From a virus (Duplodnaviria > Caudoviricetes), in IMG/VR virus record IMGVR_UViG_3300020281_000001, positions 1,442-65,441 of that record: DNA of 64,000 nucleotides. One strand, written 5' to 3'. The position numbers and the translations under genes are program-made. Below are positions 18,837 through 61,846 of this stretch, one piece after another (within the stretch, counting starts at the first letter, position 1; every line of letters starts with the position of its first letter). The notes beneath the pieces were generated by a model, which saw nothing but the letters and a program-made list of their open reading frames with translations, did no database searches and was not told the origin of the DNA.

Positions 18837-20285
18837 ATGGGAATTTTAACTCCACAATTTGGTTCAATAGTTCCTGCTCCTAATCAGCAGCTATTAGCCA
18901 GTAATTACTTATCTTTTACAGATGGTAATAATGATTTTGCGCAGCAATATCTACCTGAGATATATGAGCAAGAAGTAGAAAGATATGGAAATAGAACTCT
19001 TTCTGGTTTTTTACGTATGGTAGGTGCTGAAATGCCTATGACTTCAGATCAAGTTGTTTGGTCAGAACAAAATAGACTACATATTGCGTATGATAATTGT
19101 ACTCACAACGGAACAAGAAGAGTAACTGTTCCAGCTCCTACTTCTCCAGGTGTAACTAGAAATGTTATTTCACCCGGTTCAACAGTAGTTTTATTAGATG
19201 ATCAAGGTGCAGAGCTTAAAGGTGTTGTAACTGATTCAGATACTGCAAACGGTCACGTTGACGTAGCTCCTTACACAGCACAAACTTTAGCTAGCATTAA
19301 TGCAAATAAATTTAAAATATTTGTATATGGTTCAGAGTTTCTTAAAGGTGCATCTACATCTAATGCCGCTGCAGGTGCTATAACAGGTAATACTTCTGTT
19401 CAACCACAAATAACTGTAACTCCTGCTTTTCAACAATACAACAATTCACCTATCATAATTAGAAACGTTTATACAATAAACGGATCTGATATGGCTCAAA
19501 TAGGTTGGGTTGAAGTTGCTACAGAAGACGGAACTACAGGTTATTTATGGTATTTAAAAGCTGAGTCTGAAACAAGACTTAGATTTGAAGATTATTTAGA
19601 AATGGTATGTGTTGAAGGTGAAAAAGCTGTTAACATTGGAGCTGGTGATGCATTTGCTGCTGGTTTCAAAGGTACTGAAGGTCTTTTTGCTGCTATCTCT
19701 ACAAGAGGTAACGTAGAAGTAGGATTTTCTGCGGCTTCTGGTTTAGATGACTTTGATGCAATACTTAAAAACCTAGATACTCAAGGTGCTATTGAAGAAA
19801 ATATGTTATTCTTACAAAGATCTACAGCTTTAGATTTTGATAATATGTTATCTAATGTATCTTATGGTAGCAACGGTGGTACTGCTTATGGATTATTTGA
19901 AAACTCAGAAGAAATGGCTTTAAATCTTGGATTTAGTGGTTTCAGAAGAGGTTCATATGACTTCTACAAAACTGATTGGAAATACTTAAATGATGCTTCT
20001 ACAAGAGGTGCTATTGATGGTACTCAATCAATTGAAGGTGTATTAATCCCCGCTGGTACTTCAACTGTTTATGACCAAATTTTAGGTACCAACATTAGAA
20101 GACCATTCTTACACGTTAGATATAGAGCTTCTCAAACAGAAGACAGACGTATGAAGTCTTGGTTAACTGGATCAGCTGGAGGTGCTTACACTTCTAATCT
20201 TGATGCTATGGAAGTAAACTTCCTATCAGAAAGATGTTTAGTAACTCAAGCTGCAAATAACTTTGTATTATTCAAAGGTATTTAA
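18837..20285 (+). CDS. Major capsid protein
   Basis: 482 aa after the scaffold, strongly optimised codons, followed by a hairpin. Confidence 0.88.
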   Translation: MGILTPQFGSIVPAPNQQLLASNYLSFTDGNNDFAQQYLPEIYEQEVERYGNRTLSGFLRMVGAEMPMTSDQVVWSEQNRLHIAYDNCTHNGTRRVTVPAPTSPGVTRNVISPGSTVVLLDDQGAELKGVVTDSDTANGHVDVAPYTAQTLASINANKFKIFVYGSEFLKGASTSNAAAGAITGNTSVQPQITVTPAFQQYNNSPIIIRNVYTINGSDMAQIGWVEVATEDGTTGYLWYLKAESETRLRFEDYLEMVCVEGEKAVNIGAGDAFAAGFKGTEGLFAAISTRGNVEVGFSAASGLDDFDAILKNLDTQGAIEENMLFLQRSTALDFDNMLSNVSYGSNGGTAYGLFENSEEMALNLGFSGFRRGSYDFYKTDWKYLNDASTRGAIDGTQSIEGVLIPAGTSTVYDQILGTNIRRPFLHVRYRASQTEDRRMKSWLTGSAGGAYTSNLDAMEVNFLSERCLVTQAANNFVLFKGI

Positions 20286-31613: not shown

Positions 31614-33212
31614 ATGGCAAGACAATATTATAAATCAGGCGCTTATGAAAATCCAGTAGCAGTTATAGATAGAGAAGCAGATATGATCTATGCTAATACT
31701 ATTAGAAATATTGGTGCTGTTACAGCTGGTATTATTGATAAACAAGTAGAGCAAGAAACTGAAAGACAAAGAATTGCAAATGAACAAATGAAGTGGACTA
31801 TGGATTGGACAATGCAAAACCAAGACAAGTACTTAGATCAACTTCAAAAAGCTGGTAATAAAAACCCACAGCTTACTGCTATGTTTATGGAGCAAATAAA
31901 TATGATGGGTGATTTAGCCGGAAGAGCTAGACAAGCTTCTACACCTGAAGAACAAAGAGCATTGTTAAACGAAGTTGGTACATATAAACAACGTTTAAGC
32001 GCTGGAGCCACAAACGTACAACTTATGAACGACGCAATAAAAGTTTTTACAGATGATACTCAAGGAGCATTAAACACAGAGGGTAATTTAAATTTAAACA
32101 ATCCTAAAGCTTTAGAGTGGGGTAAAAAAATGGCTATTACAACAGGTATGAATCCAGGTACTATGACTTGGTTTGTAGATAAAGATGGTGATTGGTCTGT
32201 AAGACATGAAGGTGAAAGACTTGAATCTCCAACTGAAACTAAAGCATCTTTATTTTTTGGTTATGAGCCAGGTATTATACCTGAAAGCACAAATGAAATG
32301 CAAGATATTTTAGAAAACAAAATAAAAGCTATTAATGCTAAAACAGGTAAAGTTGATGATCAATTTTTAATGGGTCAAATGATTGATGGGGTAATGGCTC
32401 CTAGTGTAACATATGTTAAAACAAGCGAAGATGGTATGTTACAACCAGTTTATAAAACAAACATGGAAATGATCGCTCAACAATTAGCACCTCAAGCAGA
32501 AGCTGTAGCATTAAGTTATGCTAAAGAATATAACACAGCTGAAGCTTTTTGGGATAGTTTACCTAAAAGTATTAAAAATGAAATGATGAAAAAACATGGG
32601 GTAGGCGAAGATTTACAAGTGGGTAATTTTCAAATGCCTAATGGTGTAGCAACTAAACTAAATAGATCATCAACACAAGCTATTATAGAAGGTTTACAAT
32701 TAAAAGCATTAACTCAAGTACCTAAAATGAGGTTAGCTGGTAACCCAATAAAGGATCCTAATGTTAAATCTTCAAAAGGAGGTAGTATTACGGGTAATAA
32801 AATAACTTTACAAGACTTAGTAAATTTAGCTAATAAAACACCACAGCAACAAGTTGCACATATAGAGTCTGCGCTTGATTCTGATACTCAAGAAATAGCT
32901 TATAATCCGCAAAATAATACTATAACTGTTTCTGAAAAAGTAGAAGTTACAGAAGGAGAAGGAAGAGATAAAGTTACAAAAGAAGAATATCAAGATACTG
33001 TATATTATTTAAACGATCCAAGTGGTGATAGTATACCAGGTGCAACTGGAGACAGAGTAGAAGGTAGAAACCAGTGGTTAAACAGAATGGCTGAATTATA
33101 TGCAGGTAATACTGAAAATGGTAGAAAATTATTATTAGATTTTAGAAATAGTATTACAGGTGTAGATCCTAATTCTGGTGTTTTTATTAAAAGAGGATTT
33201 TTAGATAAATAA
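31614..33212 (+). CDS. Probable ejection (internal virion) protein
   Basis: Position between ejection genes; helical and Q-rich. Confidence 0.6.
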   Translation: MARQYYKSGAYENPVAVIDREADMIYANTIRNIGAVTAGIIDKQVEQETERQRIANEQMKWTMDWTMQNQDKYLDQLQKAGNKNPQLTAMFMEQINMMGDLAGRARQASTPEEQRALLNEVGTYKQRLSAGATNVQLMNDAIKVFTDDTQGALNTEGNLNLNNPKALEWGKKMAITTGMNPGTMTWFVDKDGDWSVRHEGERLESPTETKASLFFGYEPGIIPESTNEMQDILENKIKAINAKTGKVDDQFLMGQMIDGVMAPSVTYVKTSEDGMLQPVYKTNMEMIAQQLAPQAEAVALSYAKEYNTAEAFWDSLPKSIKNEMMKKHGVGEDLQVGNFQMPNGVATKLNRSSTQAIIEGLQLKALTQVPKMRLAGNPIKDPNVKSSKGGSITGNKITLQDLVNLANKTPQQQVAHIESALDSDTQEIAYNPQNNTITVSEKVEVTEGEGRDKVTKEEYQDTVYYLNDPSGDSIPGATGDRVEGRNQWLNRMAELYAGNTENGRKLLLDFRNSITGVDPNSGVFIKRGFLDK

Positions 33213-36200
33213 TGAAAGAACTATATAACTCGCTATATAATCAAGGTTTATATACAGGTACGTTTGAACAATTTCAATCAGACTATGGTGGTGAAAATTA
33301 TCAAGAGTTATATAATAAATTAAATGATAATGATTATTATACAGGTAGCTTTGATCAATTTAATATTGATTATGATCCAAATATAACTGAAAAAGAAGAA
33401 ACAATAACAGCTGAGGTAGATGATAAAACAAAAGATGGTGTATCTGAAATTAAAATAAATGGTAATATTACAACTCGTAATAGTGCTGCTAATACAATAA
33501 ATGCTATTGAAAATATAGAAGATTTTAATAAATTAAATATTGAAATTAACAACGATAATGAAATAAGTAATCTTTATACACAAAAACAAAAAGATTTAGA
33601 ACAAAAAGATATTAATATATTTAAAAGTTTTGGAGCTTATGCTGGAAGCGGAATATCCAAGTTCTTTGAAGGTTTAGGAGAAACACAAGATGCTTTAATT
33701 TACGGCGCAGCTACTCTTTTTAATCCAGACATGGATAAAGAAGAAAAGTTATTATTAAAAGATAGTATAAAAAAAGGTTATATAACGCCATCATATAGTG
33801 CTAGAATACCTACACAAGAATTAGAAAACGCAACAAAGTTTTTTGACAACTATAAAAGAAAAACAGAAAGTAAAAATATTTTAGACGCTGTTGATAAAGG
33901 TAATTATTTAGAAGCAGCAGAATTAACTGTAGGAGGAGCTTTAGAATCTATTCCTTCTATAGCTTTGGTTTTTGGTGGTGGTGGTGGTTTAACTCTTTTA
34001 GCAACAAGTGTTTCAGGTAATAAGTTTGCAGAAGAATTTGAAAACAACCCTGATGAATCATTAGGTACATTATATGCTAATGCTGCAGGTACAGGAATAG
34101 TAGAATCTTCTTTTGAATTAGTAACAAGAGGTTTGTTAAAACAAGCTGGTATAATTGGTGGTGTTAAAGGTAAAGATGTAGCTCAACAGTTTTTAAAAGA
34201 TGGTGCAAAAGATCTTGTTAAAAAAGTTGGTTGGTTTGCTGGAGCAACAGGGGCTGAGGGTTTATCAGAGGCTTCAACTGAACTCGCAACAATGTATATT
34301 GATGCATATGGTATACCAATAGCTGGTGGTCTTGGTAGTATAGGAGGTTTAAACAGAAAATCTGATTTTACTGTTGATTTTTCTGAAGGTAAGTATGGAG
34401 AAGGAATAGTAAGACTTTTTGACTCTTTTATGATAGGTTCTTTTGTAGGAGGAAATTTTCAAAGTGTAGCTGCTGTAGGTAACACTAGGAGTGCAGCTAG
34501 AAATAGAGCAGAAACATTATTAACACCTGCTTCAATAAAAAAAATATATGCAGATGGTGCAACGCAACTTTCTGAAATATATAAAGATTTAAATAATCCT
34601 GATATATCGGTTCAAGCTAAAAAAATATTACAACAAAAAGCAGAACAAATAGAACAAGATATAGCTAGAGTTAAAAAAGAAACTTCAAAAGCTTTAAATA
34701 ATTTAACTAAAGATGAATTAATAGAAAATTTTAAATATGTAGAACAGATACAAAAAAATGTTGAAGCATATAATTCATTACCAGATAAAAGAAAATCAAC
34801 TGGTAGAATACTTAGAAAAAATATACAAGAAGCACAACAAGCGCAACAAGATTTATTTGAACAAGCGGCACAAAGAGAACTACAAAAAAATATAGAATTT
34901 GCTAAAACTCAAAGTGAAGAAGTAACTGGTAGAAAAACAAAAATTATAGAAACGTTTGAAGAAGTTAGAAAAGAATATGGAGATGAAGCTGCTGCTACTA
35001 ATGCTTTTTTTGATCCTTCTACAGGTGATATAGTTATTAATAAAGAAATTGCTTCTAAAACAAAAGCTGTTTCTGTTGGTAGCCATGAATTATTACATGG
35101 AATTTTGCAACAATTATCTTTATCTGATCCATCAATTATAACAGGTGAAGGAGGATTTTTAGAAACATTAAATGATAATCAAAGACAAGTTTTAGAAAAA
35201 AGAATTAAAGATAATGGATATACTAAAAAATATTTAAAAGCTAATCCTGATGAATATCTTACTCAGTTTTCTGATGCTATTAATGAAAACGAAATAGTTT
35301 TTGAAGAAAATTTATTTACTAAAATAGGAAATATTTTTACACCAATTTTAAGAAGATTAGGTTTTAATAAAATAAAGTTTAATACAGGTAAAGATGTATA
35401 TGACTTTATGAAAGAATATAATAAAAGTATTAAACAAGGTAAATTAACTGGTGCTATAAAAGAAGTATTACCAGATAAAACTAAAACTAAAAAAGGAGGA
35501 TTAAAGTTTTCAAGATCTGCAGATATAGATGCATTAGTAGGCCCTAAAACTGATGGCCAATATACATTAACTAAAGCTGAATGGGATGCGGGTAAAGCAG
35601 ATGAAACATTATCTAAAGTATTTCCTAAACTTCAGGGTTTAATTGAAAGTAAAATACCTATAGATAGGCCACCTGGTTTTTCACAAGAAGATTTTGTAAG
35701 CGGTACTGTAGAAGAATTAATACCACATATAAGAAACTTTAACCCAGAACAAAACAATAGTTTATCTGGTTGGATTAACTCACAGCTACAAAACAAAATA
35801 GGTAATGTATTTAAAAAAGGTGAAGCTGCTACTAAAGAAGTATTTGAAGACGATGTAACTGAAGCTAGAGGTGTAACTGAAGTACAGGAAACAGTTGAAG
35901 AGGTAACACCAGAAACACAAACGGCTTCTAAATTAAGAAAAATAGTTGGTGTAGAAAGAAAAAGAGGTTTAGAAATAGCACGTAATATTGTTAAAGGTAA
36001 ACTACCTGATCTTAGTGATAAAAAACTTAGAAGTCAAATAAACAGACAGGCAAGAGATGAATATCTTACTGAAATTAGAGATTTATTAAATGACTTAACT
36101 GATAATCAAAAACTTGAAATAGTTAAAACATTACCAATACAAGACTTAGTTAAGTTAGAAAGGTTACAAAAAGATAAAATATTTGCTAAATTAGTAGCAA

Positions 36201-39200
36201 ACAATATTAGCCCTACACAAGTTGATAAAGCAATTGAAGAGGGTAAATTACCTAAAGGTACAAATAGATTATCTGGGCCTAAACTATATGAAAGACTTGA
36301 TGTTACTGCAGAACAAGTTGCAGACTTTTTTACAAGTAAAAAACGTAATGCTTTTGCAGGTGTAATAGCTGAAAACTTAGTTAAAGACGCTTTACCAGAA
36401 GTTACAGCTGAAACAGAATCAAAACAAAGAAGAGCAAGAGCTGAAGAAGCACAAGGTAGAAAAGTATCAGAAAAAGATAGAGAACAATTATTAGAAAAAG
36501 TAGAACGAGATCCTGGTCTTAAATACTCTATAACTAAAGAAGCTAAAGAAATATTAAAACTAGCCGCTGTTAAAGATAAGTATAATGATTTTAAAACTAC
36601 AAATGATGTTGATATTTATATTGAAGATATAAAAAAATTAGCAAAATTATTTAAAACAGATGATTATAATATATTAAATAGTAGTGTTCTTCAGTTTACA
36701 AAAGATGTTATTAAAGATCCTAAAATAAGAAAAGATTTAAGAGAAAAATTAAAAAAATTAAAATTAAAAGCAACAATAGGTAGAACTGCACCTAGTAAAA
36801 CTTTTGGTAATAATCCTCAAACTTTATTAAAAAATATTAATAATTCAGAAAGAACTAAAAAATATAATGATAAACATCGTAAGGTTTTTATTGCTACAAT
36901 TAAACAAATGAAAAAACTTATTGATAGTGATAAAAGTTTAGCTTTACCTTTAGTATATTTTATGGAAAATTCTATAAATGAAAGAACAAATCCTCTTTCA
37001 TTAGGTGCAATGTTTTTAGGTGGAGATCTTAATGCTAAAAAAGTTAATAATAAGTTTTTTGAATATGATCATTCTTTTCCTCAAACACAAGCAATGAGGT
37101 TAATTATGGATGGTATTTTAACAAATAAAGGTAAAGATTTTCAAAAAAATTTAGACAGAGTTTTAGATAATTATTATTTAATAGCATTAAGTAAAGCTGA
37201 TCAAAATAAAGTAAATAAATCTGGTCAAAGTAGAAAGTTAAGTGAAAATGAAAGATGGTTTGATAGACTTATTAAAGCCGATGTAGATTTAAGTAAATAT
37301 AAGTATGCTGGGCCCGAATATGAAACCATACAAGATTTTATAAATGATGTTAAAATAACACCTGAATTAGCTAAATCAAAATTAGCTGCATCTAAATATA
37401 ATGATAAAATATTACCACCTACAGATAGACTAAAAGGTTTGTATACTAACAATATGGTATTAAATAAAATGGCTGAAGTTGATAACGCTAGTGTAAAAGA
37501 AGAATTACAGTTTAGTAAATCAGCTGATTTAAGTAAAGGTTTTAATGAAATACTAGAAAAGAAAACAGGTATTGCTGCAGATAAAACATATTCTAAAGTA
37601 AAAGCACAAGTAGTTGGTGCTAATAAAGGTAGATTTAATTTCTTTATACCACCATCAGCTGAAGATTTTGTAGGTTTATTATATAAAACATTAAGTAAAA
37701 ATAAACTTGGTGATAGCCAAATGGCTTGGTATAAGGCACATTTATTAAATCCTTTTGCAAGAGCAATGGATAACTTAACTAGAGATAGAGTTGCTTTAAT
37801 GAATGATTTTAAAGCATTAAAAAAAGAATTAAAAGTTGTACCTAAAACATTAAAGAAAAAAATACCAGGTGAAGGCTTTACACAAGAACAAGCAGTAAGA
37901 GTTTATATATGGGATCAACAAGCTATGGATATTCCAGGTATGGAAGAAGCAGATGTTAAAGAACTAGTAGACTTTGTAAATAGTAAACAAGATTTAAAAT
38001 TGTTTGCTGACCAGTTAATTGCATTACAAAAAGGTGATTTATATGCTGCACCACGAGAAGGTTGGAATGCTGGTACTATTACAACTGATTTAATAGAAGG
38101 TATTAATACAACTAAAAGAGCAAAATATTTAGAAGTATGGCAACAAAATGTAGATGAAATATTTAGCCAAGAAAACTTAAATAAGCTCGAAGCTATATAT
38201 GGTAAAGGATATAGAGGTGCATTAGAAAATATACTTAAACGTATGCAAACTGGAAGAAATAGAACTTTTCCAGGAGATTCATTAACAGGTAGATTTACAG
38301 ATTGGTTAAGTAACTCTATTGGTGCTATTATGTTTTTTAATATGAGATCAGCTGTACTTCAAACAATATCTACAGTTAACTTTATAAATTTTAGAGACAA
38401 TAATATTTTAGCAGCATCAAAAGCTTTTGCTAATCAACCACAGTTTTGGGCTGACTTTAAAAAATTATTTAATTCAGACTTTTTAGTAGATAGAAGAGCT
38501 GGTCTTAAGTTAAATGTACAAGAAGCTGATATTGCTGAGCTTGCTAAAAAAGGTGGTGTAAGAGGTGTTATTAGTGAATTATTAAGATTAGGATTTTTAC
38601 CTACACAATTAGCAGATAGTTTTGCTATTGCATCTGGTGGTTCTACTTTTTATAGAAATAGAATAAAAACTTTAGAAAAACAAGGGTTAACAGCTAAAGA
38701 AGCAGAAAAACAAGCATTTCAAGATTTTAGAGAAATTGCAGAAGAGTCTCAACAATCAAGTAGACCTGATAGAATTAGTCAACAACAAGCAGGACCATTA
38801 GGACGTATTATATTAGCTTTTCAAAATACTCCAATGCAATATGCTAGATTAATTAAAAAAGCCGCTAGTGATCTTAGAAATGGCCGAGGGGATGCAAAGA
38901 CTAATATATCTAAAATATTGTATTATGGTTTTGTACAAAACTTAATATTTAACGCATTACAACAAGCTGCTTTTGCTTTAGGTTTTGGTGATACCGAAGA
39001 AGAAGAAGAAAAAAGAGAGAAAAAATATAGTAGTATATTAAATAGTATGGCAGATAGTATTATAAGAGGTACCGGTGTTGCTGGTGTTGTATTTGCTACT
39101 ATAAAAAATACACTAATTAAATTAGAAAAAGAAAGTAAAAAGAAATCACCTAAATATCAAGATGCTGTATTAGAGCTAGCTCAAGCATCACCACCTTTAG

Positions 39201-39535
39201 GATCCAAAATAAGAAAAATACAGTCAGCAGGTAGATCTTATTCGTGGAATAAAAAAGAAATGTTAGAAAAAGGCTGGTCTATAGATAATCCAGCTTATTT
39301 AGCAGCAGGTCAAGTTATAGCTGCAACAACCAACATACCACTAGATAGAGCATTTAAAAAAATTGATAATATTAGAAACTCAAGTAGATCAGATTTAGAA
39401 GCTTGGCAAAGAATAGCTTTAATAGCAGGTTGGTCTGATTGGGATTTAGGTATTAAAGATGTTAAAACTAAGTCTAAAAAAACCAAAAAAACAAAACGTA
39501 TAATAAAGAAAAAATCTAAAAAGAAAAAATTTTAA
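33212..39535 (+). CDS. Giant ejection/polyvalent protein: zincin, sigma-region-2-like, HNH-like and helical C-terminal domains
   Basis: 2107 aa; HELLH at residue ~625; L-[KQ]-[FY]-S at ~764, ~1103 and ~1432; see findings. Confidence 0.75.
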   Translation: MKELYNSLYNQGLYTGTFEQFQSDYGGENYQELYNKLNDNDYYTGSFDQFNIDYDPNITEKEETITAEVDDKTKDGVSEIKINGNITTRNSAANTINAIENIEDFNKLNIEINNDNEISNLYTQKQKDLEQKDINIFKSFGAYAGSGISKFFEGLGETQDALIYGAATLFNPDMDKEEKLLLKDSIKKGYITPSYSARIPTQELENATKFFDNYKRKTESKNILDAVDKGNYLEAAELTVGGALESIPSIALVFGGGGGLTLLATSVSGNKFAEEFENNPDESLGTLYANAAGTGIVESSFELVTRGLLKQAGIIGGVKGKDVAQQFLKDGAKDLVKKVGWFAGATGAEGLSEASTELATMYIDAYGIPIAGGLGSIGGLNRKSDFTVDFSEGKYGEGIVRLFDSFMIGSFVGGNFQSVAAVGNTRSAARNRAETLLTPASIKKIYADGATQLSEIYKDLNNPDISVQAKKILQQKAEQIEQDIARVKKETSKALNNLTKDELIENFKYVEQIQKNVEAYNSLPDKRKSTGRILRKNIQEAQQAQQDLFEQAAQRELQKNIEFAKTQSEEVTGRKTKIIETFEEVRKEYGDEAAATNAFFDPSTGDIVINKEIASKTKAVSVGSHELLHGILQQLSLSDPSIITGEGGFLETLNDNQRQVLEKRIKDNGYTKKYLKANPDEYLTQFSDAINENEIVFEENLFTKIGNIFTPILRRLGFNKIKFNTGKDVYDFMKEYNKSIKQGKLTGAIKEVLPDKTKTKKGGLKFSRSADIDALVGPKTDGQYTLTKAEWDAGKADETLSKVFPKLQGLIESKIPIDRPPGFSQEDFVSGTVEELIPHIRNFNPEQNNSLSGWINSQLQNKIGNVFKKGEAATKEVFEDDVTEARGVTEVQETVEEVTPETQTASKLRKIVGVERKRGLEIARNIVKGKLPDLSDKKLRSQINRQARDEYLTEIRDLLNDLTDNQKLEIVKTLPIQDLVKLERLQKDKIFAKLVANNISPTQVDKAIEEGKLPKGTNRLSGPKLYERLDVTAEQVADFFTSKKRNAFAGVIAENLVKDALPEVTAETESKQRRARAEEAQGRKVSEKDREQLLEKVERDPGLKYSITKEAKEILKLAAVKDKYNDFKTTNDVDIYIEDIKKLAKLFKTDDYNILNSSVLQFTKDVIKDPKIRKDLREKLKKLKLKATIGRTAPSKTFGNNPQTLLKNINNSERTKKYNDKHRKVFIATIKQMKKLIDSDKSLALPLVYFMENSINERTNPLSLGAMFLGGDLNAKKVNNKFFEYDHSFPQTQAMRLIMDGILTNKGKDFQKNLDRVLDNYYLIALSKADQNKVNKSGQSRKLSENERWFDRLIKADVDLSKYKYAGPEYETIQDFINDVKITPELAKSKLAASKYNDKILPPTDRLKGLYTNNMVLNKMAEVDNASVKEELQFSKSADLSKGFNEILEKKTGIAADKTYSKVKAQVVGANKGRFNFFIPPSAEDFVGLLYKTLSKNKLGDSQMAWYKAHLLNPFARAMDNLTRDRVALMNDFKALKKELKVVPKTLKKKIPGEGFTQEQAVRVYIWDQQAMDIPGMEEADVKELVDFVNSKQDLKLFADQLIALQKGDLYAAPREGWNAGTITTDLIEGINTTKRAKYLEVWQQNVDEIFSQENLNKLEAIYGKGYRGALENILKRMQTGRNRTFPGDSLTGRFTDWLSNSIGAIMFFNMRSAVLQTISTVNFINFRDNNILAASKAFANQPQFWADFKKLFNSDFLVDRRAGLKLNVQEADIAELAKKGGVRGVISELLRLGFLPTQLADSFAIASGGSTFYRNRIKTLEKQGLTAKEAEKQAFQDFREIAEESQQSSRPDRISQQQAGPLGRIILAFQNTPMQYARLIKKAASDLRNGRGDAKTNISKILYYGFVQNLIFNALQQAAFALGFGDTEEEEEKREKKYSSILNSMADSIIRGTGVAGVVFATIKNTLIKLEKESKKKSPKYQDAVLELAQASPPLGSKIRKIQSAGRSYSWNKKEMLEKGWSIDNPAYLAAGQVIAATTNIPLDRAFKKIDNIRNSSRSDLEAWQRIALIAGWSDWDLGIKDVKTKSKKTKKTKRIIKKKSKKKKF

Positions 39536-50358: not shown

Positions 50359-50387
50359 TATTATCCTATTTGTATCGTATTTAATTA
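50359..50387 (-). promoter_or_regulatory. Phage promoter motif copy (TAATTAAATACG-N9-GGATAATA)
   Basis: Matches the 8-copy motif; ends 5 nt before the primase ATG. Confidence 0.65.
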
Positions 50388-50693
50388 GAATGGTAAGTCA
50401 TCTTCAACTGGAGCTGGTTCAGACTTTGGTTTACTAGGCTCAGTTTTAGGTGCGGCACTTACATTATCTCCATTTGTCCACACAACTTTGACATTACCTA
50501 AATAAACTTTATCTACTTTAGCTTCTCTTTCTTCTTTAGTTTGTTCAACTATTACAGGACCATTGTTTCCAAATTGATCGATCTCATCATTTATTGTTAT
50601 GCTTATAGGTAAATACTTACCTTTAGCTCCTACAATAATTTTATCCTTTGGGATATTATTTAAATTGATACTTGTTTTTAATATTGATGCCAT
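50385..50693 (-). CDS. Single-stranded DNA-binding protein-like
   Basis: Small beta-rich protein with acidic DDLPF tail, next to ERF and exonuclease. Confidence 0.7.
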   Translation of the reverse strand: MASILKTSINLNNIPKDKIIVGAKGKYLPISITINDEIDQFGNNGPVIVEQTKEEREAKVDKVYLGNVKVVWTNGDNVSAAPKTEPSKPKSEPAPVEDDLPF

Positions 50694-50902
50694 TATGCTG
50701 TTTTTAAATTTAAGTTTTGAAACATTTTACGTAATTTTCTTGTAGTTAAAGGAGTATCCTTTAATCTACGTCTAAAGTTATCTGCTACCTTTGAATAAGG
50801 GTGATAACCATCTAATGTACTCGGATTTTTATAGAACTCAGCTAAAGGAAACCGTCTACCTGTTAGTGTACAAAGCTTAGTACTTCTTTTTACTCTTGCC
50901 AT
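50693..50902 (-). CDS. Small basic protein with a degenerate Zn-finger (PLxEFY...DG)
   Basis: Likely start MARVKRS at 50902. Confidence 0.55.
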   Translation of the reverse strand: MARVKRSTKLCTLTGRRFPLAEFYKNPSTLDGYHPYSKVADNFRRRLKDTPLTTRKLRKMFQNLNLKTA

Positions 50903-50903
50903 A

Positions 50904-51635
50904 TTATAGAATTTCAGTTTTAAAAAATTGTTTAGGATCAAAATCTTTAGTTTTAAAAAATAGTTTATACTGCGCTACTGCCTCTTGTACTTTACGTTGA
51001 CCCTTTTCGTAAAATTCTTGAGAACATTCACAGATTTTAATTTGGTGAGTTACTTTATCTATAACTATAAATATCATTTCATAATTAAATAATTGATTAT
51101 AAATATAAGCTTGGCTATCATAATTATATCTTGATGCTGAAAATTTAAATTTATCTATATCAGAAGTAGTTTTTAAATCTACTATTAATCTTTCATCATG
51201 ATTAATTATATCTGCTTTACCTTTCCACATTTCACCTTCAATTTCTTTTATACCAGGTCTTTCATATTCTACTTTACCTGATCTTATAAGGTCTTGACAG
51301 ACTTTGTTATCCATTACTATTTTCACCATTAGCTCTATTTGATCAACTTCATGTTGTAATAAACAAAGTTCACCATTAGAGATCTCTTTATACGCTTTTG
51401 TGTTCCTTGTAGTAGACTCAACTATTTTAAATTTTTTTAGTTTGTCTGGTTCTAAAATAGCGGTATGAAAATAACCACCAATTAAAAAAGCTGGTCTAGC
51501 TACAGAGGGAGTATGTAACGCTAAAGGATTTTTTAATAAAGTAGAAATATCAGAGTTGCTTAAATACTGTTGGCCAAATGACCCGTAATAGTGTTCATCT
51601 ATTTCTAACTTTTTTAAAATATCACTTTCGTTCAT
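50904..51635 (-). CDS. PD-(D/E)XK exonuclease (RecE/DUF3799-like)
   Basis: LSNSDI, GGYFHTAILEP, KGKADII, IVDLKTT, YDSQAYIY. Confidence 0.85.
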   Translation of the reverse strand: MNESDILKKLEIDEHYYGSFGQQYLSNSDISTLLKNPLALHTPSVARPAFLIGGYFHTAILEPDKLKKFKIVESTTRNTKAYKEISNGELCLLQHEVDQIELMVKIVMDNKVCQDLIRSGKVEYERPGIKEIEGEMWKGKADIINHDERLIVDLKTTSDIDKFKFSASRYNYDSQAYIYNQLFNYEMIFIVIDKVTHQIKICECSQEFYEKGQRKVQEAVAQYKLFFKTKDFDPKQFFKTEIL

Positions 51636-52151
51636 TTATAAAGTTGTTAGTTCTTCTTCTAATTGTTTTGTTAAATTATATTTTGCTTTAATAGCTTCTA
51701 TTTTTCCACCGGATTTAATAAATTGTTTTGCTTTAGCAATTTGATCTATAGACATATTCTTAGAGTGATCGTTAACAGCATCACTATCTTGAGTATCATC
51801 TATTAAAAATAAATTACCTAACGCATATTTTTTACCGTAACTAGAAGCAGATCCAAATTGCTGAGGTGTTTGCATACCTTTTTGCATAAGATCTACACCA
51901 ACTAAAGCTGTAGCTGTAATTGTTTCTTCACCATCAGAAATAGTTGCTTGACTCTCAATAATAGGCATAGGATCACTAGCAATTAAATTTTCATTTAGTG
52001 TTACAGTAACTCCTAATTCTAATAAAAAGGGTTTTGTTGCTTCGAGAATGTCTTCGGCTGATCTAAAGTAGTATTTGCCGAATGAATTAAATCTTGATTT
52101 TTTAGATTTAAATTTAGTTTGTATGGTTGCTAACTTGTCGTTAATATTCAT
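51636..52151 (-). CDS. ERF-family single-strand annealing protein
   Basis: FNSFGKYYFRSAEDILEA...QQFGSASSYGKKYALGNLFLIDD..DSD. Confidence 0.88.
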   Translation of the reverse strand: MNINDKLATIQTKFKSKKSRFNSFGKYYFRSAEDILEATKPFLLELGVTVTLNENLIASDPMPIIESQATISDGEETITATALVGVDLMQKGMQTPQQFGSASSYGKKYALGNLFLIDDTQDSDAVNDHSKNMSIDQIAKAKQFIKSGGKIEAIKAKYNLTKQLEEELTTL

Positions 52152-52193
52152 AGGTTTTAAGGGTTTTAGTTAATAATATAATTATACTGTAAA

Positions 52194-52946
52194 TTACAAA
52201 TAATCAAGTACTTGTGAATGATCTACATTTTCTATAAGCTTCTGAACAGCTTGCTTTTTTATTTCTGAAATTCTAACATAAGCGCTAGTTCCTTCAATTT
52301 TAATTTTGCTTGCTATTTCTTTAGCAGAATGTTTATCACAATCAAGGCCATATGATAATCTTAAAACTTCATATTCATTTTTACTTAAATGTTTTTGCAT
52401 TAAGCTTTTTAAATATAAATTTAAAATTACTAAATTATATGGCTCTGATTGGTCAGGTATTTGGTAAACCATATCTTCATCGCTGGTTTGTGTTTTAGCA
52501 TCTATACTTAAAAATATAGAATTAAAAAACATTTCAACCATTTTTTTATCTCGAGGATTATTTCTTATCTCATTCATTTTATGCTCTGGTATCCTAATAT
52601 TTCCTCGGTTTGTATCGATAGCTCTTCTTATACTACCTTTAATTCGTTTAAAGAAAAAAGATTTTAAAGTTTTTTCTTTATCTTTTGAGTCTTTTAATAA
52701 AGTATAATCAAGCTTGTCAACTGCTTTAGTTAATCCAATTGAACCTTCCTGTATAAAATCTGTTATATCCATAACGCCTGATGCTTGTTGTGAAGTAGAA
52801 AACTTACGTGCTATATTTTCTACTAACGGTAAAAACTTTATTATTAATTCGTCTCTTGTATAGTCTAATATATTTTTATTTTTTGTTTGGCTGATCTTAA
52901 CATCTTGTTTATATCGAATATAATTTTGAACATTATATTTCTTCAT
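52194..52946 (-). CDS. Phage sigma-70-family RNA polymerase sigma factor
   Basis: Region 2 LPLVENIARKF...DFIQEGSIGLTKAVDK...RIKGSIRRAID, IRIPEH; region 4 LSKNEYEVLRLSYGL...SAKEIA. Confidence 0.9.
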   Translation of the reverse strand: MKKYNVQNYIRYKQDVKISQTKNKNILDYTRDELIIKFLPLVENIARKFSTSQQASGVMDITDFIQEGSIGLTKAVDKLDYTLLKDSKDKEKTLKSFFFKRIKGSIRRAIDTNRGNIRIPEHKMNEIRNNPRDKKMVEMFFNSIFLSIDAKTQTSDEDMVYQIPDQSEPYNLVILNLYLKSLMQKHLSKNEYEVLRLSYGLDCDKHSAKEIASKIKIEGTSAYVRISEIKKQAVQKLIENVDHSQVLDYL

Positions 52947-53547
52947 TTAATTTATGTTTTTCCAGCTTCAATTTATTACATACATTTCTGTATATAGTTC
53001 TTTTAGATACATTTAATAATTTAGATACAGCAGACCATGTTATTTTTTTACCTAAAAAATTAAGATCCAACATACATTGATATATATCTTGTTGGTTTAT
53101 ACTTTTTGATCTACCAACTAACCTACCTACAATTTTTAATTTTTCTATTGTGCTAAGACCTGTTGATTGTTTAAAAATAACTTTCCTAATTCTATTATTA
53201 GGAGGTCTATCAAAAACAACATCTAAATTATTAAGCATATCTAATAAAAATTTTTCTTTAATATCAAAGGTAATAAAATTATTTCTTTTATCTGTTATAT
53301 ACTCAGCTATTTTTTTAAACTTAGTTTTGTTCATATCAGGATTTAAATATCTTAAGACTAACAAATGCCATTTAAGTGATTTAAAACTATTTATTTTAGC
53401 TTTACTTTTAAAAAGCTGATAACATTCATAAGTACCATTTTCATAATACTTTCCCCAATTATAAACATGTGTTGGTTTATCATTTATAGGATCTCTATTA
53501 TATATAACCCTATTGTCATTTAAATATTTCATATTTCTATGTGACAC
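52933..53547 (-). CDS. DNA-binding protein with C-terminal HTH; candidate replication initiator/regulator
   Basis: KITWSAVSKLLNVSKRTIYRNV HTH; its 5' end overlaps a duplicated dyad. Confidence 0.65.
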   Translation of the reverse strand: MSHRNMKYLNDNRVIYNRDPINDKPTHVYNWGKYYENGTYECYQLFKSKAKINSFKSLKWHLLVLRYLNPDMNKTKFKKIAEYITDKRNNFITFDIKEKFLLDMLNNLDVVFDRPPNNRIRKVIFKQSTGLSTIEKLKIVGRLVGRSKSINQQDIYQCMLDLNFLGKKITWSAVSKLLNVSKRTIYRNVCNKLKLEKHKLNEEI

Positions 53548-53588
53548 TAGCTTATTACTCTTTATATACTACTATTACCTTTTGTCAC
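53541..53588. promoter_or_regulatory. Dyad GTGACACTAGCT-N23-TACCTTTTGTCAC (copy 1)
   Basis: Second copy at 58929-58974. Confidence 0.65.
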
Positions 53589-53809
53589 TTATTTAATTTC
53601 TCAAACTTTTTAAGTTTTTTAGAATATTTTTGTATTAATTCAGCTTTACGTTTCACATTATCCCAATGATATAGTTGGTCCATGCCAAACATATTTGTAT
53701 TATTACTAACATTTTTTAATACATAATTAGTTATGTCTAATCTAAGTTGATATATAGATTTCCATAAATATTCCCTATGTTCTGCTCTTCTGTTTCTTAT
53801 TTTTAACAT
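53585..53809 (-). CDS. Hypothetical protein
   Basis: ORF in the early cluster. Confidence 0.6.
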   Translation of the reverse strand: MLKIRNRRAEHREYLWKSIYQLRLDITNYVLKNVSNNTNMFGMDQLYHWDNVKRKAELIQKYSKKLKKFEKLNK

Positions 53810-53897
53810 TTTTTTTAGTTTTACGTTTATCGTTTATATTAAATAAATTTACTTTAATTAAATGTTTATATAATTGAGTTCTTGACATATAATAATT

Positions 53898-54146
53898 TTA
53901 TATATTATCTAACTTATTATTTAAGATTTCTAATTTTCTTTTAATAATCGTCGCTTTTTTATAATCTTCCTTATCAACATACTTACTAAGTAAATGATTT
54001 AATCTATCAATTTCCATAGCCAAGACCTCCTTTTCAGAAGGTCTATATATTTCTAAGGTTTCATGGTTGTCATAATAGTTAACTATTTTATCTAGTACTA
54101 TTTCTGCAACTCTATGAGCTAGAGTTTCTAACTCCTTGTTAGTCAT
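53898..54146 (-). CDS. Hypothetical protein with a UVR-like helical hairpin
   Basis: LLSKYVDKEDYKKATIIKRKLE resembles the UvrB/UvrC motif. Confidence 0.6.
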   Translation of the reverse strand: MTNKELETLAHRVAEIVLDKIVNYYDNHETLEIYRPSEKEVLAMEIDRLNHLLSKYVDKEDYKKATIIKRKLEILNNKLDNI

Positions 54147-54591
54147 TATTTTTTAATTTATATTTTTTAATTAATTCATCAGCTGTACCTACAAAGATAC
54201 ATTCTTTTTGCCATACATTATATATAGAGATGTAAGTTTCTTCACCATCTTTCGGATATAAAGTATAAATAAATTCTTCACCATAATCACCGATTTCACC
54301 ATCACACTCATATAAATATGAATTACCAACTCTATCTTTAAATTTGTTTACTAGTTGCGCCGCGAAACAACCCGGACCATTAGCAAACTCACCCATTTTA
54401 ACTTTGCCTGATATTCCATTACCCATTTTTATAGGCCCTGCAAACTCAGCAAGCTTGACACCTACCCATTCAGGATAACCATCATATTGTTGATACATAT
54501 TTACTATTGCTTTTTTAGGCATTTTATGGCCTTCTGCAAATGATATACCTTTTTGTCTTGGTATTACTCTAGTTAAACTTCTTGTTCCCAT
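54139..54591 (-). CDS. Conserved phage protein (MGTRS...YxxxDGYP family)
   Basis: True start is likely MGTRSLT at 54591; the longer listed ORF runs through the tRNA. Confidence 0.75.
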   Translation of the reverse strand: MGTRSLTRVIPRQKGISFAEGHKMPKKAIVNMYQQYDGYPEWVGVKLAEFAGPIKMGNGISGKVKMGEFANGPGCFAAQLVNKFKDRVGNSYLYECDGEIGDYGEEFIYTLYPKDGEETYISIYNVWQKECIFVGTADELIKKYKLKNND

Positions 54592-54611
54592 TATATTTGA
54601 TTTAAAATTAG

Positions 54612-54684
<73 letters not shown>

Positions 54685-54690
54685 ATATTT

Positions 54691-54850
54691 TGGAGACGAA
54701 TGAAACAGGAATGATTTCGTGGTCGCGACTATCACTACTTTCTGTTTATATCATCTTTCCGACCTACAACCTAATTCACTGTGGGCTCACTTCTGAACGA
54801 AGTTACATCGCCTCCCTTAGATTATCTACAGCCGTTCCTGACTATCTCCA
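54691..54850 (-). ncRNA. Candidate ~160-nt structured RNA between a promoter and the tRNA
   Basis: Closing helices TGGAGA/TCTCCA and CAGGAA/TTCCTG, internal hairpins, GC-rich, no credible ORF. Confidence 0.6.
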
Positions 54851-54865
54851 TATTTTTTACATTTA

Positions 54866-54894
54866 TATTATCTATTTATCTTCGTATTTACTTT
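54866..54894 (-). promoter_or_regulatory. Phage promoter motif copy (AAAGTAAATACG-N9-AGATAATA)
   Basis: 8-copy motif; upstream of the ncRNA and tRNA. Confidence 0.75.
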
Positions 54895-55153
54895 GAAGCT
54901 CATTCCAAACATCGTATTCAGGATTTTCTGGTTCATCGTTATGAAGTAAATTTAAAATATATTTCCATGTTTTAAGATCTCGTTTATATGAGTTTAAACC
55001 TTTTTCTAATAGTTCTATACTTATTCTTCCATCATCAGAGCCATTTGCTATCTCTTGCATTGTTCTTTGTATATCATCTTTTAAATAATATATTTTAGCA
55101 TGAGCTTTGTTTATTGCTCTGGTTTTTATTTCCTCATCTATATTTTTATCCAT
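54872..55153 (-). CDS. Helical hypothetical protein
   Basis: ORF in the early cluster. Confidence 0.65.
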   Translation of the reverse strand: MDKNIDEEIKTRAINKAHAKIYYLKDDIQRTMQEIANGSDDGRISIELLEKGLNSYKRDLKTWKYILNLLHNDEPENPEYDVWNELQSKYEDK

Positions 55154-55291
55154 GTTAGTCCTTTTAAATTAAACCATTTATTAATTCCTTTAATCTGAAT
55201 TACATTGTTTTCTTCATCTAATTCTTCTCTGATTTTATATCCAAACGATGGAGGTAAATCACCTAATAAATATCCTTTATATTTTCCTTTA

Positions 55292-55804
55292 TTAGTTTTT
55301 AGTATTGTTTTGTTTATCATTATATTTTTTATTCTTATCATCAACTATTGTTTTAAGCTGATCTCTGAGCCTTTTTTCAAACTTATGACCCATACTACCT
55401 AACTTAGTTAATATTGTGTTAGTGAACCTATAAAGCTCCTTATTTTGTAAAAGCTTTATCCTGTATCTATCTTTATAAAAACCTTCAGGTTCTTGATACT
55501 TTTTATTAGATTTAATTCTATTCTGTAAACGTGTTTTTAAAGTAGTATAGACTAAGAAATATTCTTTTTCCCAAAACTCATTAATGATATTGTCAAATGT
55601 TTTAAGGCCATGAAGCACTGTTGCATGATCTTTATTTACTTGTTTACCAATTGACTCTAATGACTCATAGGTCAAGTCTCTACATAATCTGTAATAAATA
55701 CACCTCATATAGATTACATCTCTTTTCCTAGTTTTAATGTCAATTGATCTATTAAATGCACTTTCAACAGACTTTTTAATTGTGATAGAGCTTATTGTTT
55801 TCAT
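55292..55804 (-). CDS. Stand-alone DnaA domain IV-like DNA-binding protein
   Basis: TRKRDVIYMR...SLESIGKQVNKDHATVLHG matches the DnaA C-terminal signature. Confidence 0.8.
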   Translation of the reverse strand: MKTISSITIKKSVESAFNRSIDIKTRKRDVIYMRCIYYRLCRDLTYESLESIGKQVNKDHATVLHGLKTFDNIINEFWEKEYFLVYTTLKTRLQNRIKSNKKYQEPEGFYKDRYRIKLLQNKELYRFTNTILTKLGSMGHKFEKRLRDQLKTIVDDKNKKYNDKQNNTKN

Positions 55805-56193
55805 TATTATATTTTCTATTTTTAATTTGATTTTTTATATATATTTCAGCTTGTGATTTAGTGCTGAAATCTTTATAACCGAAAAATATAGGACCATCTT
55901 TCCACATGGCCCTATATTCATTATTAATTGTTGTTTTAATACAATACCTCATAGCTTTACATCGCCTTCAGGTGGATACTCAAATTTATTTCTACGTCTT
56001 TTGCTCGGATCTTTTTCTTTAGGTATTTTATAACCTACAATTGGGTTGATACCTAGATCCCACCAATTATCCGGTAATTTTCTATTTGTCATTTTGTAAT
56101 TCTTTTAGTTTTTCTTTAAATATTATTATTATTTGTTCTCTTGACATTGTTGTATGTTCAAGCCAATATAAGACTTCTTGAATACAGTCTATT

Positions 56194-56448
56194 TCAGATC
56201 TCTCCATAGTCTTTACTTCTAATTAAGTTGTTAAACTCTATTGGATGCATTGATTTAATTGATTTGACAATAGCTCTGTTAAAGTCTCTTGATCTTCGCC
56301 TGTAGTCTTCACTTGTACACCACTTAATCCAAGATCTTGATCTAGTGCAAGAACGATACTTAGCCTCATAGGCCAAGCATCTATCTAATTGCTCTTGCAT
56401 TTCTTCTACGGTTTTACCGTTTGCATATTTGTTGTTGTCTACTTTCAT
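56194..56448 (-). CDS. Early hypothetical protein
   Basis: ORF in the early cluster. Confidence 0.6.
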   Translation of the reverse strand: MKVDNNKYANGKTVEEMQEQLDRCLAYEAKYRSCTRSRSWIKWCTSEDYRRRSRDFNRAIVKSIKSMHPIEFNNLIRSKDYGEI

Positions 56449-56569
56449 TATATACTTTTAACAACCTCAATCATTGCAATCAACCATAATGGTGATACAA
56501 TAATAAATGCTATGATTCTTATTTTATTTATTAGTTTATTCATATTTTATTTTATTTAATTTATATCTA

Positions 56570-56598
56570 TATTATCTATGTTGTAACGTATTTACTTT
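56570..56598 (-). promoter_or_regulatory. Phage promoter motif copy
   Basis: AAAGTAAATACG-N9-AGATAATA. Confidence 0.75.
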
Positions 56599-56757
56599 GA
56601 CTCAACCCAGTTTATTAATGTTCGTTTACAAGCTTCTCTTTGATCTTCATTGAGATCATAGTATCCATCACAATCAAATTTATGTTTTGCAATACCATGT
56701 AATCCTATTTCAATATAAGCTCTATAACTATTTAGATTTTTCAATTGTTCATTCATT

Positions 56758-56997
56758 TTATTTATTTTGAGGCCAATATTCATCTTTCCACTGACCGTTT
56801 TCAATTACAGTCAAACCAAGTTCACTTGCTGCATAATTAATATGCTTGGTAGTTGTTGGGCTTGACGTCATACCTCTTACATTCCATTTAAGTTTGTAAA
56901 GATAGTCTCCAATTATCTCAGCAACGTGTGTATCATATGAATATATGTCGTTACCGATTTGTTTTAAATTTACTTTATATCTATCAAAAGTTTTCAT
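56758..56997 (-). CDS. Early hypothetical protein (YSYxTxVA...SxTTxKHIN family)
   Basis: Motif common among small phage early proteins. Confidence 0.7.
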   Translation of the reverse strand: MKTFDRYKVNLKQIGNDIYSYDTHVAEIIGDYLYKLKWNVRGMTSSPTTTKHINYAASELGLTVIENGQWKDEYWPQNK

Positions 56998-57187
56998 ATT
57001 ATTTATATTTTTGAATTAATTTATTTATATCTTTTAAGTTTGAAAAATGATAATGATATATAATTTCTTTTTTATAATTGAAGACAGTGAAGTCATACAT
57101 TTTAAATTTTGATGAATAATATATTTCAAATGATGTTTGTGTTTTTGGGTTTGAGTTAAAGTAGTTGTTCATGTTTTTATTTTAACA

Positions 57188-57216
57188 TATTATCTACATT
57201 ATAACGTATTTAGTTT
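57188..57216 (-). promoter_or_regulatory. Phage promoter motif copy
   Basis: AAACTAAATACG-N9-AGATAATA. Confidence 0.8.
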
Positions 57217-57224
57217 GTATTGTT

Positions 57225-57599
57225 TTATATTATACCTTTATCTAATTTAACTTGTGTTTCATTTATATTTTCTTCTATCCACTCAAGGACTTCATCTTCA
57301 GGTAAAAACTTATCTAAATCTGATATATGTATTTTAACATCAAATCCAACATCTTGAACTGTTTCAACTATCCTTTTTATTACAGTTTCAAAACTAGGTT
57401 CATAGTAATAAACATCTGTTTCCCAATTAATATTAGTTGTGTCATTTGTTATTATATGCACTTCATAATCATCAGCTGTGTACCATGGCTCAACTGATAG
57501 ATTTCCAGCTCGCCAACCAAAAGATTGATCTGCTATTTGTATTTCATTTACTTCATAAACATCTTCTAGATGCTTTATTAATTTTTCTATATGATCCAT
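57225..57599 (-). CDS. Acidic early hypothetical protein
   Basis: 124 aa, D/E-rich. Confidence 0.7.
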   Translation of the reverse strand: MDHIEKLIKHLEDVYEVNEIQIADQSFGWRAGNLSVEPWYTADDYEVHIITNDTTNINWETDVYYYEPSFETVIKRIVETVQDVGFDVKIHISDLDKFLPEDEVLEWIEENINETQVKLDKGII

Positions 57600-57799
57600 T
57601 ATAATTCTATTTTATTTATTAATTTATATATTTTATCTATTTTTTCTATTAATTCTTCTTTAGTGTATATACTATCAACATATTTTATATCTTGTTTAAG
57701 ACATGATACTTTTGCTAATATTACACCAATTGCCTTACATCTTTCATAATTTTTTTCTGTTTCTTCGTAGTATAATTCTTGATAAATGTTTTTTTTCAT
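57599..57799 (-). CDS. Early hypothetical protein
   Basis: Downstream of a promoter copy; coupled to the next gene. Confidence 0.65.
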   Translation of the reverse strand: MKKNIYQELYYEETEKNYERCKAIGVILAKVSCLKQDIKYVDSIYTKEELIEKIDKIYKLINKIEL

Positions 57800-57816
57800 T
57801 GTGTTTTATTTAATTA

Positions 57817-57845
57817 TATTATCTTGTTATTTAAGTATTTAGTTT
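57817..57845 (-). promoter_or_regulatory. Phage promoter motif copy
   Basis: AAACTAAATACT-N9-AGATAATA. Confidence 0.75.
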
Positions 57846-57848
57846 GTA

Positions 57849-58019: not shown

Positions 58020-58126
58020 ATTTTTATTTATTTATTAATTTTAATAATATATCTCTTAAATCTTCTCTATAATCATTAGTGTTTAAATAATCATATAAAT
58101 GTTCAATTAATATTTTTTTATCTTTT

Positions 58127-58285: not shown

Positions 58286-58300
58286 ATTATTATATTTTAG

Positions 58301-58364: not shown

Positions 58365-58369
58365 GTGTA

Positions 58370-61840: not shown

Positions 61841-61846
61841 AAAAAT

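Follow-up and report, generated by a model that had tools for sequence, protein, structure and literature searches.

How might a 65-kb phage begin transcription at the moment its DNA enters the cell when its early promoters do not look like those of a host? The question is raised by a 64,000-nucleotide stretch of DNA (the window; positions 1,442 to 65,441 of IMG/VR record IMGVR_UViG_3300020281_000001), which is nearly the whole of a virus record representing a complete 65,441-bp genome with direct terminal repeats. No RNA polymerase gene was found among the open reading frames (ORFs) scanned in the window, and the structural operon closes with a giant ORF (P0001; Table 1) for which the original prediction, made from the letters alone, had proposed an injected, self-cleaving polyprotein that delivers a sigma-like factor. 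Part of that interpretation stands: the protein is modular and carries a conserved zincin, junction motifs at exchangeable borders and a domain resembling sigma region 2. Two points speak against a full sigma factor: no region 4 or helix-turn-helix (HTH) was found, and the score is below the Pfam cut-off. We consider that the whole is best explained by a polyvalent cargo or ejection protein whose freed sigma-like module would act on host RNA polymerase, a reading to which we assign a probability of about 0.5; packaging, ejection, cleavage and an effect on transcription are the steps that we infer.

The evidence that carries this reading converges on residues ~770–880, whose resemblance to sigma region 2 is well supported in sequence profile, predicted fold and predicted docking. 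Searching the whole genome in six frames at E<=10 with the Pfam profile Sigma70_r2 (PF04542) returned two matches: the phage's own free sigma gene (27 bits) and a segment of the giant protein (35678–35806; 15.4 bits, E 9.6e-4 for the genome, model positions 21–63 of 71). Against 30 sigma factors from five bacterial genomes, hhalign gave P 5.8e-4 with a 51-sequence profile and, with an iterated 96-sequence family profile, a probability of 83.4% (P 8.4e-6) over 77 columns covering regions 2.1–2.4; the reversed profile reached 0.1%, none of 20 column shuffles exceeded 0.4%, and none of the four remaining domains of the giant protein exceeded 0.8%. The original prediction had aligned 35675–35800 without gaps to region 2.2–2.4 of sigma-70, and hhalign recovered the same register against a real primary-type sigma from a bacterial genome. 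Compared with the free sigma of the same phage, the family profile gave P 0.04–0.1, and thus no special kinship between the two is shown.

Structure prediction against sigma domain 2 and docking on polymerase, both proposed at the outset as checks, came out in favour of the likeness. In a VIA fold search of 48,161 chains, sigma domain 2 filled most of the top rows (Z 5–7.3, model residues 211–319), typically with a root-mean-square deviation (rmsd) of 2.5–3.6 Å over 75–91 residues. Thirteen of the top 20 (Z 5.8–7.3) name a sigma factor, 3 are RNA polymerase initiation or holoenzyme complexes and 2 are SID1; the others are BldN and CnrH, which we take to be extracytoplasmic function (ECF) sigmas. 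The kinds of sigma matched include ECF, sigma-28, sigma-32, sigma-S and pro-sigma-K, and phage initiation complexes are also among them. Docking of residues 767–881 on a beta' clamp-helix fragment, taken from a Flavobacteriaceae metagenome-assembled genome (MAG) as a stand-in, gave an interaction score (ipSAE) of 0.77, against 0.01 for the best of three controls; the mark used is reached by 58 of 80 solved complexes and by 2 of 110 mismatched pairs. The docking runs agreed in at least 74% of contacts, with a predicted local distance difference test (pLDDT) score of at least 82 for the partner, and brought the clamp helices together with residues 821–838, the region-2.2 equivalent. Such docking reports likeness rather than binding, and the domain may bind the clamp helices. 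Its best-conserved residues lie in the equivalent of region 2.3/2.4, which reads DNA in real sigmas.

The sigma-like domain recurs at the same place in related phages. Among 37 related near-complete IMG/VR genomes, selected by their free sigma gene, the giant ORF was fetched for 35; the domain directly follows the zincin in 20 of these by hidden Markov model (HMM) at E<=0.01, and hhalign finds it in 6 more at 26–95% probability. The rest of module 1 forms a second, confidently folded domain that resembles no known fold, with type III secretion gatekeepers as the best VIA match (Z 4.8) and Foldseek E values of at least 0.4.

Immediately upstream of module 1 lies a gluzincin-type metallopeptidase (MPTase) domain. 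The HELLH motif reported earlier is found at nt 35084, and H625, E626, H629, Y670 and E681 are invariant in the 51-sequence alignment. Across 168 family rows matching the zincin HMM, the triad reads H-E-H in 155 and E-E-H in 7, with a gap in 4 and fragments in the remaining 2; two of the four gapped rows (P0025 and G038) read EExxH by BLAST, and the EExxH form belongs to a small clade. An AlphaFold 2 (AF2) model of residues 560–1110 (pLDDT 73) contains three strands (model residues 17–20, 39–42 and 47–51), then the HExxH helix (63–77), and then a later helix (121–132) with E681 (E122 in model numbering). Alignment and predicted model thus display the features that define a zincin-like MPTase: a three-stranded sheet, an HExxH helix and a glutamate on a later helix. 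Fold matches are weak, namely the catalytic domain of anthrax lethal factor (1yqy_A; Z 5.2, rmsd 5.0, 139 aligned residues) and Certhrax (4fxq_A; Z 5.0). A partial Sigma70_r4 (PF04545) match also falls inside the zincin domain (35159–35221, plus strand; 11.8 bits, 20 of 50 positions), which we take as chance.

The original prediction had further noted three similar junctions that cut out modules of about 339 and 329 amino acids; all three are present and the module sizes are 339 and 329. The motif [LIVM][KQM][FY]S is enriched: 120 homologues hold 221 copies, where 100 shuffles give 46.0±7.1 (maximum 62), although relatives share inherited sites and the count therefore overstates the number of independent events. 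Its extended consensus is h-K-F-S-K-S/T. Several features were apparent: firstly, many homologues carry 2–5 copies, at differing module borders; secondly, the strict motif occurs three times across window ORFs of at least 100 amino acids, always in the giant ORF; thirdly, the sites lie in low-confidence linkers of the AF2 model; and fourthly, at the position of junction 2 the residues P, K, F and S all reach 90% conservation or more in the 51-sequence alignment. Codons differ among the three sites (the serine is TCA, TCT or AGT), which argues that selection acts on the peptide. Enrichment, linker position and coincidence with a swap boundary are compatible with the K-F-S linkers being cleavage sites, in which case they would provide a defined recognition sequence for polyvalent-protein zincins. 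In many homologues junction 3 is preceded, at a distance of ~29 residues, by a second K-F-S motif (LPxxVKFSKS), and relatives carrying it would, if the sites are cut, release a peptide of ~29 amino acids; in the giant protein this second site is degenerate (residues ~1397–1431, window 37400–37504): LPPTDRLKGLYT.

Comparison with homologues shows the giant protein to be a modular carrier whose cargo can be exchanged. Of 8000 candidates scored, more than 3220 proved significant homologues, mostly from marine metagenomes, where the family is very common. Taking coverage of at least 80% of a part by the 120 best homologues as the measure, the C-terminal domain (1432–2080) is covered in 118 and the zincin (590–760) in 104, module 1 (764–1100) in 74, module 2 (1110–1380) in 39, and the N-terminal part (1–560) in 15. 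Homologue P0003 illustrates a swap directly, being 97% identical through residue 1106, at the second junction, and unrelated from there until residue 1386; in other homologues the middle holds an AAA_33/Zeta-toxin-type P-loop kinase or DUF6934. The N-terminal part reaches a Kyte-Doolittle peak of 1.55 at residues 249–267. At the other end, the giant ORF with its C-terminal domain is present in 37 of 37 related genomes; in two of them (G023 and G044) the match to this domain contains one in-frame TGA, for which sequencing error, a split gene or recoding are possible.

Across 1.84 billion representatives, module 1 falls into 201 clusters at 50% identity, almost all of them within proteins of 1000–3658 amino acids. 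A search for split forms among shorter proteins gave 8 matches, which are probably fragments, since they lie on contigs of 754–3032 bp where a length is given. Some ORFs of 1204–1932 amino acids start inside or just before module 1; several readable clusters of such ORFs also hold full-length giants, and natural splitting of the giant protein is not claimed. As a whole, the giant protein has no match in PHROGs, in PDB sequences or in 50,697 phage records searched by tblastn, and at E<=1 Pfam returns three chance-level rows only. A profile of the full-length alignment yielded only coiled-coil noise against PDB sequences. Two candidate identities were not confirmed. For module 2, an HNH-like nuclease pattern is no more than a lead: PF13395 has no match at E<=10, and the Atlas look-alikes are unnamed viral clusters. 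Atlas look-alikes of the C-terminal domain pointed to LPD39/LPD38 (LPD39 making up 28% of one cluster), yet neither PF18858 nor PF18857 matched the domain, the LPD38 control matching nowhere.

Is such a protein delivered with the DNA? It is probably a virion component, judging from the position of its gene, the analogy with gp65–67 of phi14:2 (a crAss-like Cellulophaga phage), and a weak C-terminal match to a 'structural protein': a 150-residue stretch of the C-terminal domain is 27% identical (pairwise E 1e-10) to the 2482-residue Gundel1_74 of Tenacibaculum phage Gundel_1. In phi14:2 the syntenic g067, g066 and g065 products are virion proteins by tandem mass spectrometry (MS/MS). The report on that phage describes a zincin domain in gp65 and, in some crAss-like phages, a fusion of gp65–67 into a polyprotein that is 'likely cleaved' (10.1101/2020.03.07.982082). 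A freshwater relative encodes a 3859-residue protein with two HExxH motifs at the same place. The polybasic C-terminal tail is compatible with DNA-associated cargo.

Read together, the order of parts is a variable N-terminus, a gluzincin, a sigma region-2-like domain followed by a 200-residue domain, a swappable effector module, and a C-terminal domain with a polybasic tail, the modules being joined by presumably disordered linkers bearing h-K-F-S-K-S. We propose that the giant protein would be packaged and then ejected along with the DNA; that its linkers would be cut by its own zincin or by another protease; that the freed sigma-like module would dock on the beta' clamp helices of host RNA polymerase; and that the docked module would either direct the polymerase to phage early promoters or displace the host sigma.

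The early promoter-like motif is enriched. AAAWACG-N9-RGATAATA, scanned as AAAWAC-N10-RGATAATA with at most one mismatch, has 8 matches in the window, against 0.75±0.87 in shuffles, none of 100 of which reached 8. All are on the minus strand and the copies stand immediately before gene starts, in one case that of the primase-helicase gene; the count and the placement of seven of them upstream of the free sigma gene agree with the earlier description of eight early motifs. The motif is found in 36 of the 37 related genomes, usually in 3–9 copies on one strand. One relative (G043, 70.7 kb) has 21 copies on one strand. No copy precedes the late genes in the window, and inspection by eye of 10 plus-strand intergenic regions revealed no evident late-promoter motif. 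The intergenic region at 9173–9390 (plus strand) contains the upstream half-motif AAATACG followed by a different A/T-rich block, possibly a variant promoter.

The most specific form of the proposal is that the lineage starts infection by injecting a sigma-like module, cut at K-F-S linkers, that retargets host core polymerase to AAATACG-N9-RGATAATA, which would make it the first virion-delivered sigma; in this full form we hold it to be rather unlikely. Known ways of taking over transcription at time zero are two, strong host-type promoters or an injected complete RNA polymerase (N4, crAss-like, phiKZ-like and P23-45 phages). If the proposal is true, a virion-carried sigma-like module would be a third and cheaper way, an injected sigma would be what evolution has put at this genome position where crAss and N4 phages have a virion polymerase, and the presence of non-host-like early promoters in a 65-kb crAss-related phage without any polymerase gene found would be explained.

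A number of observations weigh against a delivered sigma-like module. With respect to the domain itself, the Sigma70_r2 score of 15.4 bits is below the 24-bit gathering cut-off, and a whole-protein hmmscan lists no match; all VIA Z scores are under 8, a range that the tool's own note calls common for helical domains; and with the model no Foldseek match reaches E<=0.001, the rows being weak, though sigmas are among them. The docking pass may merely reflect likeness to solved sigma–polymerase complexes, and the beta' used is a stand-in; the predicted contact residues are no more conserved than the rest (0.51 vs 0.54, Mann-Whitney p 0.89). No sigma-3 or sigma-4 was detected in residues 905–1107 by hhalign against sigma alignments (P 0.47–0.67), PF08281 has no match, and the fold search of the second domain lists no sigma-4, so that the caveat attached to the original prediction, that no region-4 HTH is obvious, stands after hhalign, Pfam and fold search. 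With respect to cleavage, EExxH relatives retain 3–4 junction motifs and some HExxH relatives have none, so that motif and canonical zincin in cis are not strictly coupled. With respect to delivery, HMM searches (and hhalign for gp66) detected no homology in sequence between the giant protein and gp65, gp66 or gp67 of phi14:2. Lastly, two related genomes carry the promoter motif (G038, 9 copies; G040, 6 copies) with no sigma-like segment detectable by HMM or hhalign, and the free sigma gene together with a host-type promoter would offer a conventional route to early transcription.

That route is the basis of the best-surviving alternative, which we judge somewhat unlikely: the free sigma, not the giant protein, would read the early motif promoters. 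Host holoenzyme would initiate at the host-type promoter, and transcription would run on into the free sigma gene, whose product would then fire the eight motif copies; the sigma-2-like part of the giant protein would still bind RNA polymerase, but in order to block host sigma (shut-off) or to tether the polymerase to the entering DNA. The free sigma passes the PF04542 cut-off and has a weak region-4 match, and a bipartite motif suits a sigma with two DNA-reading domains, whereas no sigma-4 was found in the giant protein; G038 and G040 point the same way. A homologue of the free sigma is present in all 37 related genomes, which were chosen by that gene, and the motif in 36 of them, but the giant protein is also in 37 of 37, and co-occurrence thus does not separate the free-sigma from the giant-protein explanation. 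A comparative test of whether the motif needs the sigma-like module was likewise non-discriminating: nearly all related genomes carry both, the module-less contigs found first are without an early region, more sensitive searches bring out divergent sigma-like segments in most of the genomes that had seemed to be without one, and with giant protein, free sigma and motif together almost everywhere the comparison could not separate the two explanations. The start signal that the free-sigma explanation calls on, a host-type promoter noted earlier at 58767–58796, was recovered at 58795–58767, upstream of the first motif copy; the Bacteroidota-type pattern, however, has 7 matches in the window against 9.6±2.9 in shuffles, so that it is not enriched and the single match may be chance. 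Moreover, the sigma gene that would have to read the eight motif copies itself has seven of them upstream, and the best-conserved residues of the sigma-like domain fall in the part that is DNA-reading in real sigmas.

Alternatively, the giant protein might be merely structural or ejection-related, of internal-core or tape-measure type, its sigma-2 likeness a relic or a convergent helical bundle and its K-F-S peptides assembly or docking linkers. All of the sigma evidence is indeed predicted or under curated thresholds, the predicted interface shows no preferential conservation, relatives without canonical HExxH still have the junction motif, and the Gly-rich N-terminal region and the C-terminal domain resemble phage 'structural protein'. 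This explanation is nonetheless improbable in our estimate: four different tests with clean controls converge on the same ~110 residues, no fewer than 26 of 35 divergent genomes have the sigma-like domain right behind the zincin, and the kinase-type enzymes in the middle modules of homologues fit an effector carrier. Least probable is that the protein is undelivered, being made late and acting in the producing cell, for example as a late-gene specificity factor or assembly protease. Its gene does lie in the late operon, but MS/MS places the syntenic phi14:2 giant proteins in virions, packaged cargo would suit both the polybasic tail and the size, and the late genes have no motif copy before them.

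A polyvalent cargo protein carrying a sigma-like module has clear counterparts among known systems. The closest in position is the phi14:2 block of gp65 (zincin), gp66 (two-barrel RNA polymerase) and gp67, which likewise stands at the end of an operon of large terminase (TerL), portal, capsid and muzzle genes, is of similar size and has a zincin domain; the proposed logic, in which DNA-borne cargo starts early transcription, would be common to both, and the phi14:2 genome also has a GroEL-like gene. The giant protein differs from gp66 in having neither D.D.D nor a DFDxD two-barrel polymerase, a sigma-2-like domain standing in its place, and therefore falls outside the crAss polymerase family. 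At 65 kb, the genome is smaller than the 100 kb of phi14:2, and the strong common motif of the early promoters contrasts with phi14:2, whose early transcripts are reported to have none (10.1101/2020.03.07.982082).

Polyvalent proteins with a zincin-like MPTase, N4 gp50 among them, similarly join many domains in one polypeptide among virion genes, around an HExxH...E peptidase hub, which in the giant protein bears a weak likeness to lethal factor, with swappable effector modules, as described in the survey of that class (PMC5512222). The survey unifies these MPTases with the lethal factor fold, and proposes for the class both autoproteolytic release and a jump-start of transcription (PMC5512222). 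By contrast, the giant protein matches no Pfam LPD or other polyvalent-protein family; the word 'sigma' is absent from the main text of PMC5512222, and a comparable conserved linker motif from its excerpted passages. In Thermus phage P23-45, the fusion of a tape measure with a virion RNA polymerase is also an ejected giant protein with a transcription component and a metallopeptidase, but its cargo is a polymerase with DFDGD, set in a siphovirus tape measure (10.1101/2022.12.01.518664). The fold matches of the sigma-like domain include the T4 late-transcription complex and the AR9 non-virion polymerase holoenzyme. The sigma-like factors of T4 late transcription and AR9, sigma-2-only or highly diverged, are likewise sigma-2-like and associated with an A/T-rich -10-like element, and are without the canonical sigma-4 that was not found in the giant protein either; they are free proteins made after infection, whereas here the domain is embedded in a giant late-operon protein.

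No virion-delivered or injected phage sigma was found in the main texts of the literature searched, in which phrase matches were to reovirus sigma proteins. Zincin-bearing virion polyproteins that start transcription have already been described for N4-like, crAss-like and P23-45 phages, and to call the locus a new system, as the original prediction did, overstated the case; what seems novel is that the cargo is sigma-2-like rather than a polymerase, and that a conserved linker motif goes with it.

Table 1. Features of the giant protein and of the rest of the window (nt, window positions; aa, residues of the giant protein unless stated).
Feature	Position (nt)	Residues (aa)	Strand	Evidence or remark
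Giant ORF (P0001)	33212-39535	2107 aa	+	Last large gene of structural operon
Variable N-terminal part	33212-34978	1-589	+	Gly-rich, moderately hydrophobic at 238-267, then coiled-coil-like
Gluzincin-type metallopeptidase domain	34979-35500	590-763	+	HELLH 625-629, Y670, E681
Junction 1, LKFSRSAD	35501-35512 (LKFS)	764	+	Within low-pLDDT linker (model residues 184-211, pLDDT <50)
Sigma region-2-like domain	35519-35851	~770-880	+	Pfam, hhalign, fold search, docking
Second domain of module 1	35924-36517	905-1102	+	Confidently folded: pLDDT 92, predicted template modelling score (pTM) 0.87
Junction 2, LKYSIT	36518-36529 (LKYS)	1103	+	Module-swap boundary in P0003
Exchangeable module 2	36530-37504	1107-1431	+	Module swap in P0003, variable coverage
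Junction 3, LQFSKSAD	37505	1432	+	Start of C-terminal domain
Conserved C-terminal domain	37505-39535	1432-2107	+	Starts at junction 3, ends in polybasic tail
GroEL-type chaperonin gene	4874-6436		+	Cpn60_TCP1, E 1e-62
Virion structural protein, phrog_13704	18837-20285			At expected place of major capsid gene
Eight early promoter-like motifs	50359-58740		-	At 50359, 54866, 56570, 57188, 57817, 58370, 58564, 58717
Free sigma-70-family gene	52194-52946	250 aa (own product)	-	phrog_351; PF04542 27 bits; PF04545 15.8 bits, below cut-off
Bacteroidota-type promoter match	58767-58795		-	Single, head of early arm, upstream of first motif copy

The surrounding genome places the phage in a widespread marine lineage that is probably flavobacterial and related to crAss-like phages. 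The rightward structural operon begins with the large terminase, the portal and PHROG virion structural proteins, and includes muzzle-type proteins of 1840 and 491 amino acids that match crAss 'muzzle' families (phrog_14478 and Pfam crAss_MUZ_C). By terminase, the closest cultured relatives are phages of Flavobacterium, Cellulophaga, Tenacibaculum and Maribacter, with 44% identity for the rows listed. Genes of the leftward arm encode ribonucleotide reductase, thymidylate synthase, MazG, a primase-helicase, an exonuclease and the 250-residue sigma-70-family protein. The family of this free sigma is very abundant and conserved: E was <=0.001 for all 8000 candidates scored, with identity of 67% or more for the 120 listed; copies occur in MAGs labelled Aliivibrio, Clostridium, Woesearchaeota, Rickettsiaceae and others, probably as misbinned phage contigs. 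The sole D[FY]D.D peptide in six frames, DFDQD at 45887 (minus strand), lies outside the listed ORFs of at least 100 amino acids, in the gap that separates the ribonucleotide reductase small-subunit gene from the one that follows, and is probably due to chance. Tail-fibre-like proteins with Laminin_G_3 domains and Phage_tail_C tips are encoded at 678–3330 and at 59162–63388 (plus strand), and with such genes at either end of the linear map the structural region continues across the terminal repeat.

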